Shown here: positions 3,926 to 9,366 of the stretch, one piece after another | Layout of the letters: the number at the start of each line of letters is the position of its first letter | How positions within the stretch are numbered: position 1 is the stretch's first letter | From: an uncultured delta proteobacterium | GTDB taxonomy: Bacteria; Desulfobacterota; BSN033; UBA1163 | Length of the DNA stretch: 64,000 nucleotides | Direction: 5' to 3' | NCBI GenBank assembly: GCA_963708295.1 | Contig: CAVPSJ010000004.1 | Coordinates: 384,001 to 448,000 of the forward strand | Notes under the pieces: model-generated | What the model was told of the DNA's origin: nothing | The model's database searches: none | Seen by the model: only the letters and a program-made list of their open reading frames with translations | Made by a program: the position numbers and the translations under genes

Positions 3926-4219
3926 TCATCCCCGGGGAATAAAGTTTGGACTTAAATATTCAGGAGGATGAAAGATCGAATTTACCAACCCATCGCTTAA
4001 CAGCAGCATTTTGGCTGGAATGAGAAGGCCGTTAAATGGAAGGCTTGAAATTTCTGAGACAACGATATCCACAATCATCGGACAGTGAAATGGAACTCCG
4101 CAATCCATCTTCATATTCCCCGAGTGATTTTCCTCCGGGCATCCATCCATGTGAAACACGGGGGCATAGGACAAAAGGATTCCGATAACAAGGAGGCATC
4201 CTATGGTTTTCATATCCAT
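3926..4219 (-). CDS. Small exported Cys/His/Met-rich protein with C-terminal IFHPP motif (DUF2946-like)
   Basis: N-terminal hydrophobic stretch, HMDGC...H...MKMDC...HCPM, SIFHPP; RBS GGGAG; directly upstream of metal efflux operon. Confidence 0.6.
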   Translation of the reverse strand: MDMKTIGCLLVIGILLSYAPVFHMDGCPEENHSGNMKMDCGVPFHCPMIVDIVVSEISSLPFNGLLIPAKMLLLSDGLVNSIFHPPEYLSPNFIPRG

Positions 4220-4259: not shown

Positions 4260-4282
4260 TAAACCTTTAGGGGGGTGAAGGT
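4260..4282. promoter_or_regulatory. Second copy of TAAACCTTTA-G6-TRAAGGT dyad
   Basis: Near-identical to 3692-3714. Confidence 0.55.
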
Positions 4283-5313
4283 GTTAACTTCGGGTGTTCA
4301 ACGGAGAACCGTATTTTCTGTCTTTCACAACCAGGGCAGTACTCAGGATATCGCTCCCCTCCATCCGGAAAAATTGTTACAATCACACCCCGGTCAATCG
4401 ACTCTGCCAACTTCAATGAGGCCCAGAAAGCAGCACCCGAAGAAGGCCCTACCCAGAGACCTTCCTCCTTTGTCAGACGGATCATCATCTCGTAAGCATC
4501 TTCTGTTTTAACAAAGAATGTCCCATCCAGGATGGATTCGTCATAAATCCCCGGACGGATGGCGGTTTCAATATGCTTCAACCCTTCTATCCCATGGAAA
4601 CCGCTGTCCGGTTGAACCCCGAAGACTCTCATTTTGGAGTTATACTCCTTCAACCTTCTCCCTGTGCCCATCACTGTACCCCCTGTCCCAACACCTGCGA
4701 TGAAATGGGTCACTCGCCTCTTGCTCTGATGCAGAATCTCCAATCCTGTGCTTTCATAGTGGGCCCGCCAGTTGGATGGGTTATTATACTGGTCTGCCTT
4801 AAAGTACTGATTGGGATTTGATTCATAGATTTCTCTGGCTTTCAGAAGAGCTCCATCTGAACCCATCAAAGGATCTGTGAAGATCAGTCTCACACCATAG
4901 GCTTCCAGAGCTTTCTTTCTCTCCTCGCTCACATTGGCAGGAACGACCAGTTCCACGCGATACCCTTTGATCGCCCCAATCATCGCATAAGCGATCCCTG
5001 TGTTCCCCGAAGTGGAATCAAGGATGATCTTTCCCCGGGTCAGCTCGCCAGATCGTTCTCCATCTTCGATAATCCTCAGGCCGGCCCGATCCTTGACAGA
5101 CCCTCCAGGATTGAGCCATTCCGCTTTTGCAAAAATCTGAACTCCTCTCAGGTGCTTGGTCACGCGGCAGATCTGTATCAGAGGTGTATTTCCAATGAAG
5201 GTAAGCAGGGAATCTGGATTTGCACTCCTTATATCTTTTCGGTCCTGCAAGACATCCCTGATTTGAAGGGCTTCCATCAATCCATCCTTTGTCTGCAATC
5301 CGGCGTTAGCCAA
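4267..5313 (-). CDS. cysM: PLP-dependent cysteine synthase (CysM/CysK family)
   Basis: IGNTPL, NPGGSVKDR (PLP Lys), TSGNTG, GVGTGGT, GPSSGA. Last ~25 aa probably frameshifted; corrected stop at about 4284. Confidence 0.9.
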   Translation of the reverse strand: MANAGLQTKDGLMEALQIRDVLQDRKDIRSANPDSLLTFIGNTPLIQICRVTKHLRGVQIFAKAEWLNPGGSVKDRAGLRIIEDGERSGELTRGKIILDSTSGNTGIAYAMIGAIKGYRVELVVPANVSEERKKALEAYGVRLIFTDPLMGSDGALLKAREIYESNPNQYFKADQYNNPSNWRAHYESTGLEILHQSKRRVTHFIAGVGTGGTVMGTGRRLKEYNSKMRVFGVQPDSGFHGIEGLKHIETAIRPGIYDESILDGTFFVKTEDAYEMMIRLTKEEGLWVGPSSGAAFWASLKLAESIDRGVIVTIFPDGGERYPEYCPGCERQKIRFSVEHPKLTPSPP

Positions 5314-5707
5314 TCACGTCGATCTCCTCAAGGTAGATGGCTTCTTTCTCAATCTGGAAAGCTTTCACCACTGGATTTTTCTCCTCTTTTAAAGAGATGA
5401 TGATGGAGGAGACATCCGGATAGAAAGTCAATTTCACATCGGTCTCAGACGGGAATGGAATCGTATGAGGATGGGAATGATAGATGGCAACCATTCTCAT
5501 CGATTCCTTTTCCATTTCCTCAAAGACCTTCATTTGCTCTTGTGGAGACATGGAATAGAGAACCGGACTTTCCTCCGTATTCCGAAGTTCGAAAGACTTT
5601 TGGACGGTTTTATCCTTCCCGCTTAAAATCCCGCAGCACTCTAAGGGCCACTCCCTTTTCGCATGGTCCACCATTTCTTGAAAAATCGTTTTGGGAATGC
5701 GAATCAT
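5306..5707 (-). CDS. JAB/Mov34 (M67, Mec-like) metallopeptidase
   Basis: PLECCGIL and YHSHP...PSETD JAMM motif. Confidence 0.9.
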   Translation of the reverse strand: MIRIPKTIFQEMVDHAKREWPLECCGILSGKDKTVQKSFELRNTEESPVLYSMSPQEQMKVFEEMEKESMRMVAIYHSHPHTIPFPSETDVKLTFYPDVSSIIISLKEEKNPVVKAFQIEKEAIYLEEIDVIG

Positions 5708-5721
5708 TGAAAAACCCTTTT

Positions 5722-6705
5722 CTAATGGCCGGGCGGCGGACCTGTTTCAATACTCTCGCTTGCCCTGCTCCACTCGATCCATGAACCATCATAGTTATGG
5801 AGCTTCTCCAAGGGATAACCGACCAAATAGAGGCTCACCAAACTGTGAGCCGAGCGCACCCCGGAGTGTCAGTAGAGGTAAATGTCTTTTTCCGGTGTGA
5901 CTCCTCTGGCGGAAAAGGTTTTCTTAATCTCTTCTGCCGATTTCCAGTAGCCCTTATAAGGCCCTTCCTCCAAAATCGCCTCTTTCCATTCAATCCAGGT
6001 AACCCCGGGAATGCGGCCACCTTGGGTAGCACCTTTCTTTATCTCTTCGCCCACATATTCCTTCTTGGTGCGGACATCTAAGACAATTCTACCGGGTCTT
6101 TTCAATGCCGACTTGACCTCCGGCAAGGTGCAAAACAACGGTTTTCGTCCTTCCGTCTCCCCCTGGAGCTTGAATCTCGTCTTCTCCAGTTGGGCGGGTA
6201 TTACCTCAAGGGGATGGCCCTTTGCTTTCCAACCATCAATGCCCCCATCAAGAAGTTTCATCTGTTTCAGGGGAAATCCATAGTAGGCAAGAATCCACCA
6301 AAGCCTCGCATGGTCATACAGATCCGAATAGATGATCAGGGTATTCTTCTCACGGATCCCCAGGTTTCCCAAAAGCGCTTCCATCTGGGGTTGGGGAGCC
6401 ATCATCCCGGGGATGGGATGATTTTTATCCTCCATATCCGGACGCCACACCTGGACGGCTCCTGGAATATGGCCGCTGAGATACTGAAGTTTCTCGCGTA
6501 CGTCGATGATTCGAATTTTGGGGTCTTTTTTCTGAACAAGGGCATTAAGTTCATCGGGCTGGATAATCATTTCTGGATGAGCATATCCTCCGTTGGGAAC
6601 GGCATGGGAGGCTTGGGTTAAGGAGATAAGAAACAAGGCTAGGGCGAATATCAAAGCAAATGTCCTGGTCCGTTTTATAGGCGTCTTAGATTCCTCGCCA
6701 ATCAT
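5722..6705 (-). CDS. Two-domain rhodanese/sulfurtransferase, probable selenoprotein (UGA at 5869-5871), with N-terminal signal peptide
   Basis: GHIPGA, LLDGG, GRIPG motifs. Reading through TGA gives YLY-U-HSGVRSAH...LHNYDGSWIEWS, the active-site loop plus C-terminal rhodanese signature, ending TAG at 5722. Hairpin 17 nt after UGA. Confidence 0.88.
5832..5851 (-). promoter_or_regulatory. Putative bacterial SECIS hairpin (rhodanese)
   Basis: GGCUCAC-AGUUUG-GUGAGCC, perfect 7-bp stem with G/U-containing loop just 3' of the UGA. Confidence 0.7.
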
Positions 6706-6724
6706 TGAACCCGTCCCGATTTCC

Positions 6725-7936
6725 TTAAACGGCCGCCTGGCTTGTCGTCTCCAAGCTGCATGTATGCTGATAATCGGCCAGTCCCGTTATTTTCGGTTTC
6801 CCATTACAAAGGGGGCATGATGGATTTTTTCTGATCTGAAACGTTTTGAATTCCATTTCCAGGGATTGGTACATCAAGAATTGGCCGATCAGGGGTTTCC
6901 CTTTTTTCAAAATCAACTTGATCGCTTCGGTAGCCTGAATCAATCCGACTTGCCCGGGCACAACTCCCAGGACACCTGCTTCGTCTCAGCTGGGGACCAG
7001 ACCCGGCGGGGGAGGTTCAGGAAAGAGACAGCGCAAACACGGCCCTCCCTCTTTTGGAAAAAAGACACTGGCCTGGCCTTCAAATTGAAAGACGCCTCCA
7101 TAAATATAAGGCTTCCCGGTAAAGAAAGAAGCGTCGTTGACGAGATATTTCGTTGGGAAATTATCAGATCCATCAATGATGATATCGTACCCTTGAAAAA
7201 TCTCGAGAGCATTCTCCGGAGTCAATCGCTTTTGATAAGTCTCAACTTTTACATCGGGATTAATTCGATGAATGGCCTCTTTGGCTGATTCAGTCTTTGG
7301 CCTTCCCACATCAGACAAGCCGTGCAATATCTGCCGCTGGAGGTTGGTCAAATCCACTTTGTCCGAATCAATAATCCCAAGGGTTCCTACTCCCGCAGCA
7401 GCCAGATAAAGAGCGGCCGGACACCCCAGCCCTCCCGCACCGACCAGAAGGACTTTTGCATTTAACAGTCGAATCTGTCCTTCCATCCCGACGTCTTTAA
7501 GCAGAAGGTGCCGGCTATACCGGCTGAGTTGATCGGGCGTTAATTCGGAATCGCTCACCACTTCATAGCCAGCCGCCTTCCAACCATCGATCCCTTTGGC
7601 CATGGACAAGACATGGGTATACCCTTTTTCCTTCATCAACTTGGCAGCGGCGAGTGAACGGATACCTCCTGCGCAGTAAACGACCACGGAGGCATTCTTA
7701 TCAGGCAGCAGGGTCTCCACCTTTTCGCCTAAGAGGGCTTGAGCAAGGAAAGTTGCTCCCTGAATATATCCAAGCGCTATCTCCTCCTTCTCCCGGATAT
7801 CGAGGAGGACAACGGGCCCCTTTTTTTGAAGGAGTTGACGGGCCTCCTCAACAGAGACTTCGGAACCTTGTCTCTTGGCCTTGATGATAAACCAATCTTT
7901 GAAGGCAGTGATTGTCTTCAACGTTCCTATTTTCAT
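6725..7936 (-). CDS. moeB: Rhodanese-MoeB/ThiF (MoeZ-like) adenylyltransferase, probable selenoprotein (UGA at 6986-6988)
   Basis: N-terminal rhodanese (VVYCAGGIRS), RYSRHLLL, GAGGLG, NLQRQ, CLRC. Readthrough PPPPGLVPS-U-DEAGVLGVVPG matches family PSC(A)EAGVLG; same frame continues to CPLC and stop at 6725. Confidence 0.9.
6951..6974 (-). promoter_or_regulatory. Putative bacterial SECIS hairpin (MoeB)
   Basis: UGUCCUGGG-AGUUGUG-CCCGGGCA with one bulged U, starting about 11 nt after UGA. Confidence 0.65.
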
Positions 7937-7972
7937 TTGATACCCTCGTTTCTCTCCGTATGATGCGGAGAG

Positions 7973-8263
7973 TCACCTTTCCACCGAAGAACCACCGGCA
8001 ATGGCCGGGATGATAGAAATCTGATCCCCTTCTTTCAAAGGGGTCTCCAAGTTCCGGATGAATCGGATATCTTCGTCATTGACATAGATGTTGATGAATC
8101 GCCTCACCTCGCCCTTTTCATCCCTGAGTCTTTCTTCAAGCCCAGGATAAGTGTCCGTCAACGATCGAAGCACTTCTCCAACTGTATTCCCTTGCGACCT
8201 AATCACATCCTGTTCCCCGGCCAATTTCTTCAACGGGGCAGGGATTCGAACATGGACTTGCAT
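7973..8263 (-). CDS. MoaD/ThiS/CysO-family ubiquitin-like sulfur carrier with C-terminal extension after GG
   Basis: RRFINIYVNDEDIRF...LKEGDQISIIPAIAGG-SSVER; ATG 8263 preceded by GGAGG. Confidence 0.9.
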   Translation of the reverse strand: MQVHVRIPAPLKKLAGEQDVIRSQGNTVGEVLRSLTDTYPGLEERLRDEKGEVRRFINIYVNDEDIRFIRNLETPLKEGDQISIIPAIAGGSSVER

Positions 8264-8386
8264 GCTTTCCTCCATCATAGACTTGGTTTCAGTCAATTTT
8301 CTTAGAGTTTTGCTTTCTTGATTTCTCATTCAAAGCACGCTGTGACTTCATATTGTTTCATTTTTTATTTCGAATTCTAAAAAAAG

Positions 8387-8409
8387 TACTTTATAAAAAT
8401 TATCAAGAA
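8387..8409 (-). promoter_or_regulatory. Putative Rrf2 operator in sulfur-carrier operon leader
   Basis: TTCTTGATAATTTTTATAAAGTA, similar to sites at 8527-8549 and 9053-9075. Confidence 0.45.
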
Positions 8410-8517
8410 ATAGCTTACAAAAAATGGGAAATTACAAATTTCCCCCTTTAATTTACACAAAAGTAACCGCAACTATTTAGAATATAAGAAGTTATAAATA
8501 ATTCATATCTTTTTTTT

Positions 8518-8549
8518 ATGCTACCATTGTTTATAAAATATGTCAAGAA
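8518..8549 (-). promoter_or_regulatory. Sigma-70 promoter for sulfur-carrier operon overlapping an Rrf2-like site
   Basis: TTGACA-N17-TAGCAT on minus strand. Confidence 0.6.
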
Positions 8550-8554
8550 GAAAA

Positions 8555-9019
8555 CTAAATATAATACATAAACCTCTTATCAAAATCCTTCTTAATTCCC
8601 ATTTCTTTAGCCAGGTTGCAAAGGTCCCTAACCGTTACAGAATCAAAATATTCTCTTAATCTTTTTCCTGCTTCATTCCAAACAATTTGAGTCACGCATT
8701 CACCTGATCTTTCACATGGTTGGGATGAGCCCCCTTCGTCAACGCAACGAACCGGGTTTATACTACCCTCTGTGATTTGGACGATTTCGCGAATGGTAAT
8801 ATCTTCGGGTTTTTTCCCCAAAAAATAGCCACCCGAAGGGCCCCTTTTGCTCCGAACTACTCCCGCTCTTTTTAGTTTCTGGAAGATCTGTTCCAAATAG
8901 CGCTGAGATATTCCCTGTCTTCGAGAGATGTCCTTGACCTGCGTTTCTAATCCTTCGGAATGATAGGCAATATCGAAAATAGCTCTTACCCCATATCGGC
9001 TTTGCGTGGATAGTCTCAT
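8555..9019 (-). CDS. Rrf2-family transcriptional regulator (IscR/CymR-like, three Cys)
   Basis: MRLSTQSRYGVRA, YLEQIF, SKRGPSGGY, C-x9-C-x5-C. Confidence 0.92.
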   Translation of the reverse strand: MRLSTQSRYGVRAIFDIAYHSEGLETQVKDISRRQGISQRYLEQIFQKLKRAGVVRSKRGPSGGYFLGKKPEDITIREIVQITEGSINPVRCVDEGGSSQPCERSGECVTQIVWNEAGKRLREYFDSVTVRDLCNLAKEMGIKKDFDKRFMYYI

Positions 9020-9162: not shown

Positions 9163-9366
9163 ATGCGGAAACCTGATTTCGAACAGTTCGAAGCAACCTC
9201 TCTTTACTGTCCTCGGTGCAAAGCAGCGGTCCCCGTGAGGAAGAGGTTGCTTCTGGTCTTACCCGAAGGGGACGAATACGAGTATCTGTGTGCCTATTGC
9301 TCCTCGTCGGTAGGGACCAAAACTGACAAGAATGCCCCCCAGATCGATATGATTATAAAACCCTGA
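9163..9366 (+). CDS. Small zinc-ribbon-like protein
   Basis: CPRC...CAYC pairs, 67 aa. Confidence 0.65.
   Translation: MRKPDFEQFEATSLYCPRCKAAVPVRKRLLLVLPEGDEYEYLCAYCSSSVGTKTDKNAPQIDMIIKP

Follow-up and report, generated by a model that had tools for sequence, protein, structure and literature searches.

What pathway is encoded by a bacterial gene cluster in which two enzyme genes each contain an in-frame TGA codon, and how are these codons read? The cluster occupies the minus strand at 4267-9019 of the window (the whole 64,000-nucleotide stretch of DNA that was analyzed) and consists of genes for an Rrf2 regulator, a ThiS-like carrier, a rhodanese-ThiF/MoeB E1 enzyme, a double rhodanese, a JAB/JAMM peptidase, and a CysM-like synthase, with one in-frame TGA apiece in the E1 and double-rhodanese genes. 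The host is a wetland/sediment-type Syntrophaceae-like bacterium. A preliminary description of this DNA had proposed the same six-gene cluster, and open reading frames and domain searches recovered all six genes in place:

8555-9019, minus strand: Rrf2-family regulator with C92-x9-C-x5-C (PF02082, 134 bits)
7973-8329, minus strand: ThiS/MoaD/SAMP1-like ubiquitin-fold carrier (PF02597, 68 bits), with Gly-Gly (GG) at 7991-7996, then SSVER and a TGA stop
6725-7936, minus strand: rhodanese-first E1 enzyme (ThiF/MoeB/MoeZ-like), very probably a selenoprotein (PF00581 at residues 28-122, PF00899 at residues 140-375)
6986-6988, minus strand: in-frame TGA, E1 codon 317 (..LVPS-U-DEAGV.., probable selenocysteine), aligned with Cys of homologues
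5722-6705, minus strand: double-rhodanese sulfurtransferase (COG2897 type, UxxG; PF00581 in two stretches), very probably a selenoprotein
5869-5871, minus strand: in-frame TGA, rhodanese codon 279 (..IYLY-U-HSGVRS.., probable selenocysteine), aligned with the catalytic Cys of 1UAR and 3P3A
5306-5707, minus strand: JAB/JAMM metallopeptidase, Mec-like (PF14464, 83.7 bits)
4267-5313, minus strand: CysM-like PLP (PALP) enzyme, start perhaps the ATG at 5277 (PF00291, 225 bits)

Both TGAs are very probably selenocysteine (Sec) codons at cysteine positions, judging from sequence comparison. At E1 codon 317, TGA is found in 14 of 14 family orthologues (68-88% identity) and TGC or TGT in 7 more distant homologues (51-58% identity); among the matches listed, TGA stands in this column in 74 of 80 pattern loci, from several phyla. 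Of 12 rhodanese orthologues, the window's among them, 10 have TGA and 2 have TGT at codon 279. Apart from these two Cys-form rhodaneses, every orthologue with a readable codon keeps both TGAs. The genome encodes tRNA-Sec, SelA, SelB, and two SelD proteins, whose genes themselves contain TGA. TGA also serves as an ordinary stop, closing 468 of the genome's 1109 long open frames and 4 of the 16 window genes that were checked.

Each of the 120 top-ranked database entries listed has its E1 ended at this codon by gene callers, leaving products of 308-328 aa, a truncation that the preliminary description had predicted for standard annotation. As a result, the E1 may be overlooked or wrongly labeled when cysteine and methionine pathways are reconstructed for these uncultured anaerobes. 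Taken at face value, such calls would favor real stops, either in split or decaying genes or from sequencing errors. That reading is contradicted by conservation and we regard it as extremely improbable: past both TGAs the reading frame encodes conserved protein in every orthologue, from independent assemblies, hairpins are kept downstream of both, and the Sec machinery is complete.

Bacterial SECIS elements have an expected spacing from the UGA to the loop and carry G or U in the loop. The hairpins with an AGUU-starting loop that had been noted after each UGA are present, their loops beginning 21 and 25 nt past the UGA:

6951-6973 (stem 6971-6953), minus strand: SECIS-like hairpin of the E1 gene, core CCUGGG-AGUUGUG-CCCGGG, loop AGUUGUG
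5832-5851, minus strand: SECIS-like hairpin of the rhodanese gene, GGCUCAC-AGUUUG-GUGAGCC, loop AGUUUG

Because the folding energies of both hairpins are no better than those of shuffled sequences (z -0.39 and +0.28), their significance rests on comparative data, in which invariant synonymous sites and compensatory pairs indicate conservation beyond coding need. All 5 third-codon positions in the E1 stem are invariant and all 13 flanking ones variable (20 distinct family sequences), and pair 18-36 is CG in 22 sequences, GC in 13, and AU in 1 across phyla; pairing of the E1 stem in one fixed register was no better than in column shuffles (78.3% versus 77.1%). The second stem pair of the rhodanese hairpin reads G-C in 4 of the 10 Sec forms, A-U in 4, and G-U in 2, with no mismatches. 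The hairpin of one Cys form (L097) has its loop altered to AGCUUG and one pair weakened.

The preliminary description had each UGA exactly at the catalytic Cys. Both do stand at Cys positions, but the E1 position is that of the crossover-loop Cys and not that of the rhodanese domain, whose active-site residue is kept as Cys (C88, in YCAGGIRS). The features expected of an adenylating E1 are present, namely a ThiF domain (PF00899, 288 bits), the nucleotide-binding Gly motif (GAGGLG at 166), and structural CxxC pairs (at 300 and 374), and the rhodanese active-site Cys lies on the same chain, in an N-terminal domain as in NF006444. The E1 exceeds the cut-off of that family (514 bits, cut-off 449) and falls under those for MoeZ NF005902 (414 bits, cut-off 647) and UbaA (345 bits, cut-off 450). 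Its best solved relative is Uba4 of the eukaryotic Uba4/MOCS3-Urm1 system (6YUB, E 1.9e-59): Sec317 aligns with Cys202 of Chaetomium Uba4, a position occupied by Lys in the C202K entry 6yuc. In the available portions of the Uba4 literature, Cys202 is the crossover-loop cysteine that forms a thioester and the rhodanese domain is the persulfide source. Unlike the window E1, Uba4 has its rhodanese domain C-terminal, uses Cys, and functions in tRNA thiolation and urmylation rather than in amino-acid synthesis.

The remaining genes resemble the thiocarboxylate route to cysteine of Mycobacterium tuberculosis, formed by CysO, MoeZ(R), Mec, and CysM according to the accessible text of PMC3227635. Four parts are common to both: a ubiquitin-fold carrier (GG-ending or processed), a rhodanese E1, a JAMM peptidase, and a CysM-type PLP enzyme. 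The window differs in the reversed domain order of its E1 (rhodanese first, of NF006444 type, compared with MoeZ), in Sec replacing the crossover-loop Cys, in a tail after the carrier GG, and in the added Rrf2 and Sec double-rhodanese genes. The carrier, whose true start is likely the ATG at 8263 (preceded by GGAGGA), has the beta-grasp ThiS/MoaD fold and the Gly-Gly of CysO/MetO-type carriers, but SSVER comes after the GG; the earlier claim of a carrier ending in GG is corrected to a GG-SSVER tail, and the carrier therefore needs processing. In the JAB peptidase, which is the single good Prok-JAB match in the genome, HSHPHTIPFPSETD fits the Mec-type JAMM pattern H-x-H-x7-S-x2-D and, together with Glu23, forms a predicted metal site. 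The CysM-like enzyme has the PLP lysine motif SVKDR at 72 and reaches 365 bits against TIGR01138 cysM (cut-off 394); its best solved relatives are the E. coli/Salmonella CysM (221 bits), and M. tuberculosis CysM, at 194 bits, is not closer. Four further CysK/M-type genes in the genome exceed the cut-off, so the cell need not rely on the operon route for cysteine itself.

Comparison of related loci bore out the expected operon conservation. The CysO/MoeZ/Mec/CysM-type gene order is kept across the Syntrophaceae-like group, with carrier-E1-(rhodanese)-JAB-CysM retained wherever a locus is readable throughout, and wherever a related locus includes sufficient upstream DNA, the E1 gene or operon is preceded by an Rrf2 gene. 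We consider it probable, from the combined analysis, that the operon encodes a sulfur-handling, protein-thiocarboxylate-type cysteine biosynthesis of the CysO/MoeZ/Mec/CysM kind in which two catalytic Cys have become Sec. In this pathway, the JAB peptidase would trim the five-residue tail to expose the carrier Gly-Gly, and the ThiF domain of the E1 would adenylate the carrier. The carrier would then pass to crossover-loop Sec317, forming an acyl-selenoester that corresponds to the thioester on Uba4 Cys202, and the Cys88 persulfide of the E1's own rhodanese domain would attack. The Sec may help resolve the resulting acyl-disulfide, releasing carrier-COSH, which the CysM-like enzyme would join with activated serine (O-phosphoserine or O-acetylserine as candidates) before the JAB peptidase releases cysteine.

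The same parts could instead serve a sampylation-like protein modification, with the carrier conjugated to targets, the Sec-E1 selenoester used for transfer, the JAB protein acting as a deconjugase, and CysM a target or mere neighbor. The carrier exceeds the SAMP1 equivalog cut-off (NF041918, 72 versus 60 bits), which makes a protein-modifier role possible; the best NCBIfam match of the JAB protein is a desampylase (77.8 bits, under the cut-off of 130), the E1 matches the SAMP-activating UbaA, again under its cut-off, and the Sec lies at the thioester Cys position of E1 enzymes. We nevertheless judge this quite unlikely, as the carrier is tightly and repeatedly linked to CysM, and in relatives to a ThrC-like PLP enzyme placed as in MetM/MetO, and the window region showed no gene resembling an E2 or E3. 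In archaeal SAMPs, sulfur-carrier and modifier roles are not exclusive.

A different product or client of the E1 is another alternative: the thiol made may be a thio-cofactor, a siderophore-type thioacid, or homocysteine from a promiscuous CysM-like enzyme, or the E1 may serve mainly molybdopterin, thiamin, or tRNA thiolation, with the carrier and CysM as passengers. The CysM-like enzyme's score under its equivalog cut-off leaves room for this, the family name of NF006444 is molybdopterin-synthase adenylyltransferase, and a 2005 paper, in its accessible part, files the MoeB selenoprotein under molybdopterin biosynthesis. Three loci of the same genus (L027, L031, L032) have only Rrf2 and the Sec-E1, and the Sec-E1 is solitary in other phyla. 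Against this stand the best matches of the PLP enzyme, which are all cysteine synthases, the gene order kept in the fully readable loci, and a separate ThiF/MoeB gene with its own ThiS-like neighbor on contig C7 of the genome. On balance we hold the alternative to be unlikely as an account of the operon. The Rrf2-plus-E1 loci and the solitary E1 genes do imply that the E1 has clients besides the operon carrier, and its part in the operon may be just one of the roles it fills.

The second Sec enzyme appears to work elsewhere. The preliminary description had called the cluster a relay operon, but the two Sec enzymes probably do not pass sulfur between them: the double rhodanese has a conserved export signal, 4 of the 18 informative related loci lack it, and it has Cys in 2. 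The signal was judged by eye:

6601-6705, minus strand: signal-peptide-like N-terminus of the double rhodanese, residues 1-35 (..TQASHA/VPNGGY), read by eye

A basic stretch, a hydrophobic stretch, a small-x-small site, and an invariant [VI]P[NS]GGY occur in the window protein and in 11 of 11 orthologues, and alignment to cytosolic rhodaneses begins at residue 40 (best solved relative, Thermus rhodanese 1UAR, E 3.8e-37). The double rhodanese is probably a periplasmic accessory and not a link in a cytoplasmic relay; it would act as an optional periplasmic sulfane-sulfur transferase, using thiosulfate or polysulfide.

The preliminary description had offered a Sec-catalyzed carrier-bound cysteine pathway or a selenium relay; the operon type and the Sec at Cys positions agree with the first, and the second found no positive support. 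In a relay, the rhodanese domains would carry selenium, the E1 would form a carrier selenocarboxylate, and CysM and JAB would release selenocysteine or deliver or detoxify selenide. What could suggest this is the presence of two Sec enzymes in one operon, a SelD gene about 16 kb away (G000:C4:371872-372792), and a ThiS-like gene directly behind the genome's other SelD, a gene that would fit a selenium-side carrier if the selenium-moving form were true. A Sec residue, however, is uninformative about substrate, the Sec-E1 has no carrier, CysM, or JAB neighbor in 52 of 53 loci from lineages outside the group, Cys-E1 versions of carrier/CysM/JAB clusters exist in the same class or phylum (L040, L044, L045), and of the 20 loci of that ThiS-like gene only 8 have it next to SelD. 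Within the window, neither the operon nor its immediate surroundings contain a selD, selenium transporter, or YedE/YedF-type gene. We consider such a relay highly unlikely. A broader proposal is that this natural E1 would load its ubiquitin-like carrier by way of two intermediates, an acyl-selenoester and a Se-S species, and, at its boldest, that the module might also make selenocysteine or a safe selenide donor, independently of SelA, via carrier-selenocarboxylate, CysM, and JAB; as a whole we find this very doubtful.

The cysteine pathway that we favor appears here in a shortened operon. All 14 relatives whose upstream DNA could be read carry a ThrC-like (MetM-like) gene, which is absent from the window and has no close copy elsewhere in the 91%-complete genome (best match 32% identical). 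Homology to two relatives (L026 and L029) ends at 8347-8349, the first codons of their ThrC-like gene, and picks up again at 8270-8279, inside the carrier gene:

8349-8351, minus strand: orphan ATG, apparent remnant of the start of a ThrC-like (MetM-like) gene, located by the homology break relative to relatives

The carrier extends past the GG in both relatives inspected for this feature, and in L029 the added stretch is a NIL domain. By these comparisons, the window operon is a reduced derivative of a larger one, from which the ThrC-like gene and the carrier extension past the GG have been deleted. In Streptomyces, MetM, MetO, MoeZ, and Mec make homocysteine from O-phospho-L-homoserine (Hasebe et al. 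2024, as cited in the available part of PMC13759103). The window's relatives correspond to this route in that a ThrC-like gene, MetM-like by placement, immediately precedes their carrier gene and the E1 and JAB genes come after; the window operon, having lost this gene, has no ThrC-like homocysteine synthase beside its carrier.

The claim of a new system does not hold in that form, since both selenoprotein families and both carrier pathways were already known and the window holds a reduced derivative. In the accessible text of PMC3227635 and PMC13759103, the CysO and MetO routes are described as sulfur pathways. As far as their accessible portions go, the Zhang/Gladyshev catalogues of 2005-2026 (PMC1088965, PMC2398784, PMC1976440, PMC9312934, PMC13188914) include MoeB and rhodanese-related sulfurtransferase (COG2897) selenoproteins in the 2005 tables, given as predicted, with the MoeB one under molybdopterin biosynthesis, and rhodanese-like selenoproteins with a UxxG motif in a 2026 review. 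The window proteins belong to these same families and have the same kind of Sec site. We found no mention of a carrier/JAB/CysM operon for either family in those portions, and no published description of the union of both with a CysO/MetO-type operon. Selenoproteins of the MoeB and COG2897 types have been catalogued since 2005 as predicted, without a tested role, and the place of the Sec-E1 within a conserved carrier/JAB/CysM (and ThrC-like) operon ties it to a specific biochemical context. It raises the question of whether Sec at the E1 crossover loop forms a selenoester, speeding or protecting thiocarboxylate formation.

The regulator gene and blocks of the leader that follows it are also conserved. 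The Rrf2 protein scores 128 bits against IscR and 94 bits against CymR, each under its cut-off; with three Cys it may bind an Fe-S cluster, and it probably controls the operon via a conserved inverted repeat in the leader:

8518-8546, minus strand: candidate promoter, TTGACA-17-TAGCAT with TG extension, directly past the Rrf2 stop (10 of 12 consensus matches)
8426-8444, minus strand: terminator-like hairpin GGGAAATTTGTAATTTCCC, then a T-run, from a scan of the leader
8389-8407, minus strand: inverted repeat CTTGAT-N7-ATAAAG, putative Rrf2 operator, read from the sequence

The promoter is proposed from its consensus match, and its TTGACA box is kept across 14 aligned intergenic regions. At the putative operator, the block CTT.AT..T.ATAA is kept in 14 aligned loci. 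The terminator-like hairpin keeps its position among relatives with both arms altered (GGTGGAG/CTCCACC and CAGGGGAG/CTCCCC).

The six-gene minus-strand cluster with in-frame TGA codons in two enzymes, as claimed in the preliminary description, is present at 4267-9019. ORF and domain searches place its genes as follows:

8555-9019 (-), Rrf2 regulator
7973-8329 (-), ThiS-family carrier
6725-7936 (-), E1, composed of an N-terminal rhodanese and a ThiF domain
5722-6705 (-), two-domain rhodanese
5306-5707 (-), Prok-JAB peptidase
4267-5313 (-), CysM-like PLP enzyme

Under the standard code the open reading frame of E1 ends at 316 codons and that of the rhodanese at 278, while reading TGA through yields proteins of 403 and 327 residues that match their domains over the full length. 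The peptides around the two selenocysteine (Sec) sites would be ..LVPS-U-DEAGVLGVVPGQ.. at Sec317 of E1 (TGA 6986-6988) and ..IYLY-U-HSGVR.. at Sec279 of the rhodanese (TGA 5869-5871). The anticipated truncation by standard annotation was borne out for E1, for which the best 120 database entries listed are all cut at the TGA. The operon is a real, conserved, doubly selenocysteine-containing version of a known pathway type.

Several lines of evidence concern the reading of these TGAs as selenocysteine. The preliminary description had proposed looking for the selenocysteine machinery in the genome and for UGA/Cys pairing in homologues, and both were found. The genome encodes tRNA-Sec, SelA, SelB and two SelD proteins, each SelD gene with one TGA. 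At E1 codon 317, TGA occurs in all 14 orthologues from related genomes (68-88% identity) versus TGC or TGT in seven homologues at 51-58% identity; at rhodanese codon 279, 10 of 12 orthologues (window included) have TGA versus TGT in the other two. A broader search with a degenerate pattern spanning the E1 TGA covered 185,579 species genomes and gave 114 stretches, of which 80 were listed. Among these listed matches, 74 of 80 loci have a homologous E1 with a stop at the same column, and the Sec-E1 loci come from Latescibacterota, Rokubacteria/Methylomirabilota, Poribacteria, Nitrospinota, Verrucomicrobia, an Actinomycetota MAG and a Syntrophaceae-like group.

Otherwise TGA is an ordinary stop codon in this genome; it terminates 468 of 1109 long open frames across the genome and four of the 16 window genes examined, the carrier gene among them. 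The carrier stop (7973-7975, -) shares its frame with the E1 gene, which begins 36 bases further on, and read-through would give a 537-aa ORF; this relation is probably incidental. In a search of sequencing runs, no run shared more than 0.33 of the sampled words. Contigs from two DNA runs (X1, X2) and two RNA libraries (X19, X20) that could be placed on the window at 85% likeness or above were fragmentary and from relatives. One X1 contig (5487-5913) covers the rhodanese TGA, and none of the RNA contigs bridges either TGA by 31 letters.

The proposal that UGA stands exactly at the catalytic cysteine of both enzymes holds for the rhodanese, where Sec279 is the active-site residue of a UxxG loop and falls at the catalytic Cys position in alignments with solved rhodaneses. 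For E1 it needs a different cysteine: the enzyme's own rhodanese Cys (C88) is intact, as are its GAGGLG motif and two CxxC pairs, and Sec317 instead aligns with Cys202 of Chaetomium Uba4 (Lys at this column in the C202K entry 6YUC). According to the account in Pabis et al., 2020, Cys202 is the crossover-loop cysteine, whose thioester with Urm1 precedes attack by the rhodanese persulfide. The same column is Ala or Ser in two rhodanese-first E1 paralogues (42% identity) from class-level relatives (L044 3916-5046 and L045 4983-6104), which adjoin JAB, carrier and a second, Cys-containing ThiF gene, with CysM in L044 only.

Hairpins follow both TGAs as previously described, with loops AGUUUG and AGUUGUG. 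Their folding energies are no better than those of shuffled sequences, so support for them is comparative. A scan of the whole window at Rfam gathering thresholds gave no matches, and hence no catalogued SECIS or riboswitch model over the hairpins or the leader. Across 20 distinct E1 family sequences, all five third-codon positions in the stem are invariant and all 13 flanking ones variable. The position of the E1 hairpin is constant across phyla while its letters differ, with pair 18-36 being CG in 22 sequences, GC in 13 and AU in one. A single fixed stem register was rejected as a description of this hairpin: in 71 sequences, 78.3% of cells were paired versus 77.1% in shuffles, 14 of 500 shuffles scored as high, and double changes occurred at pair 18-36 only. 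Two registers coexist between phyla, and the shift of one in some phyla makes whole-stem statistics weak. In the rhodanese hairpin, the second pair among 10 Sec forms is G-C in four, A-U in four and G-U in two. In the Cys-form rhodanese gene of one relative (L097), the former SECIS hairpin persists, but its loop has changed and one pair is weakened, as would be expected for a relaxed SECIS; this form looks like a recent Sec-to-Cys reversion. We also considered an AGUU loop motif shared across the genome, but the post-TGA hairpins of the two SelD genes have other loops, leaving no common motif.

Conservation of the operon, another proposed check, was found in Syntrophaceae-like relatives, with a ThrC-like gene extra and the rhodanese variable. 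This group (E1 at least 67% identical) accounts for 21 of the 80 loci among the matches listed, and counts refer to loci with enough DNA on each side. Downstream of E1, the 18 informative loci among the matches listed have the rhodanese (12), JAB directly (4) or no partner gene (2, consisting of Rrf2 and E1 only). Upstream of the carrier, 14 loci among the matches listed are informative, and in all of them a 410-aa ThrC-like gene (TIGR00260, 293 bits) separates Rrf2 from the carrier. L026 and L029, the two relatives inspected for the extent of the carrier, have approximately 260-300 bases of additional carrier-gene sequence past GG, a stretch missing from the window; the L029 extension is a NIL domain (PF09383, 56 bits). 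Homology between the window and its relatives is interrupted twice, once from exactly the first codons of the ThrC-like gene to a point within the carrier, and once from just after GGSS to the start of E1. These breaks indicate that the ThrC-like gene and the NIL-coding stretch were both deleted in the window, leaving an orphan ATG (8349-8351) and the carrier tail SSVER. With the queries used, the rest of the 91%-complete genome yielded no close ThrC-like copy (32% identity at best) and no NIL match.

The relatives' ThrC-like gene, carrier, E1 and JAB correspond as a set to the MetM/MetO/MoeZ/Mec homocysteine route as tabulated in GapMind 2026 (Table 2), and carrier, E1, JAB and CysM correspond to the mycobacterial CysO route in its published outline. 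Given these matches, the ancestral operon appears to have been a module for both cysteine and homocysteine, of which the window retains the cysteine half.

The preliminary description had drawn a relay running through both Sec enzymes, which the rhodanese probably does not fit. Its alignment to cytosolic rhodaneses begins at residue 40; residues 1-35 run from a basic through a hydrophobic stretch to ASHA|VP, and the same pattern, read by eye, precedes an invariant [VI]P[NS]GGY in all 11 orthologues examined. The gene is missing from four related operons and has a Cys form in two. Together these features suggest that the double rhodanese is an optional and probably periplasmic sulfane-sulfur transferase, probably outside the cytoplasmic relay.

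We read the operon as sulfur chemistry with Cys-to-Sec replacement. The alternative that it is a selenium relay, also raised earlier, has a low probability: nothing in or beside the operon is selenium-specific, and carrier/CysM/JAB clusters in the same class or phylum also occur with a Cys-E1 (L040, L044, L045). Moreover, of the 53 Sec-E1 loci among the matches listed that lie outside the Syntrophaceae-like group, some of them cut by contig ends, 52 have no neighbouring gene for carrier, JAB, CysM, rhodanese or Rrf2; the exception (L102) reads CysM-JAB-Sec-E1-carrier. In three same-genus genomes (L027, L031, L032) the locus is Rrf2 and Sec-E1 only, which argues that Sec-E1 must have other clients; in L027, the small exported protein and efflux genes that flank the operon in the window come next. 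At five loci with stand-alone Sec-E1 genes, four from Latescibacterota, Rokubacteria, Poribacteria and Nitrospinota and one from Actinomycetota, the neighbours were unrelated genes, among them Ldh_2, aldo-keto reductase, glycosyltransferase and PDZ.

MoeB and COG2897 rhodanese selenoproteins were predicted in papers of 2005, 2007, 2008, 2022 and 2026 (PMC1088965, PMC2398784, PMC1976440, PMC9312934, PMC13188914), and selenoproteome catalogues, in the portions available, place the MoeB selenoprotein under molybdopterin biosynthesis. In searches of the main text of the literature, we found no paper putting Sec-E1 or Sec-MoeB in a carrier/JAB/CysM operon. The operon context offers two long-orphan selenoproteins a testable role.

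The spacer between Rrf2 and the operon (8389-8546, -) is conserved in 14 aligned loci. A promoter-like TTGACA-17-TAGCAT lies directly after the Rrf2 stop; next come approximately 60 bases of variable sequence, then a hairpin that has a T-run and shows co-variation between its arms among relatives, and lastly an inverted repeat, CTTGAT-N7-ATAAAG. Such an order, with a terminator placed between promoter and first gene, might reflect attenuation or the production of a small transcript. The Rrf2 protein has a C-x9-C-x5-C arrangement, and we infer that the inverted repeat is a candidate Rrf2 operator.

The flanks are unrelated to the operon, with an RND/Cus-like efflux set on one side and a polysaccharide-deacetylase-like gene, proteases and FtsEX on the other. 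Between CysM and the efflux genes lies a 97-aa ORF (3926-4219, -), hydrophobic at its N-terminus and containing a segment rich in Cys, His and Met, which had no match in a Pfam search and probably belongs to the efflux set; a homologue lies directly after Sec-E1 in L027 (4597-4914), a locus that lacks the other operon genes downstream of E1. Divergent from Rrf2 is a 67-aa zinc-ribbon-like ORF (9163-9366, +) with two CxxC pairs and likewise no Pfam match.

Elsewhere in the genome, contig C17 has three consecutive genes at approximately 65.8-68.0 kb (L177 3867-6010), for a TusA+DsrE fusion, a SelD containing a single in-frame TGA and a ThiS-family protein of 77 aa with GG at its end. The 77-aa protein is 66-94% identical across three families. 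SelD-ThiS adjacency was rejected as a clue to a selenium carrier, as SelD adjoins the ThiS-like gene at just 8 of its 20 loci, and these eight all come from the family to which the window belongs. The second SelD with an in-frame TGA lies in the region 371872-375924 of contig C4 (L178 5831-9955), 8-12 kb before the window start and 2.2 kb from a CysK/M-type cysteine synthase gene (426 bits); a trypsin/PDZ protease gene occupies the interval. Besides the operon's CysM, the genome has four CysK/M-type genes above the cut-off.
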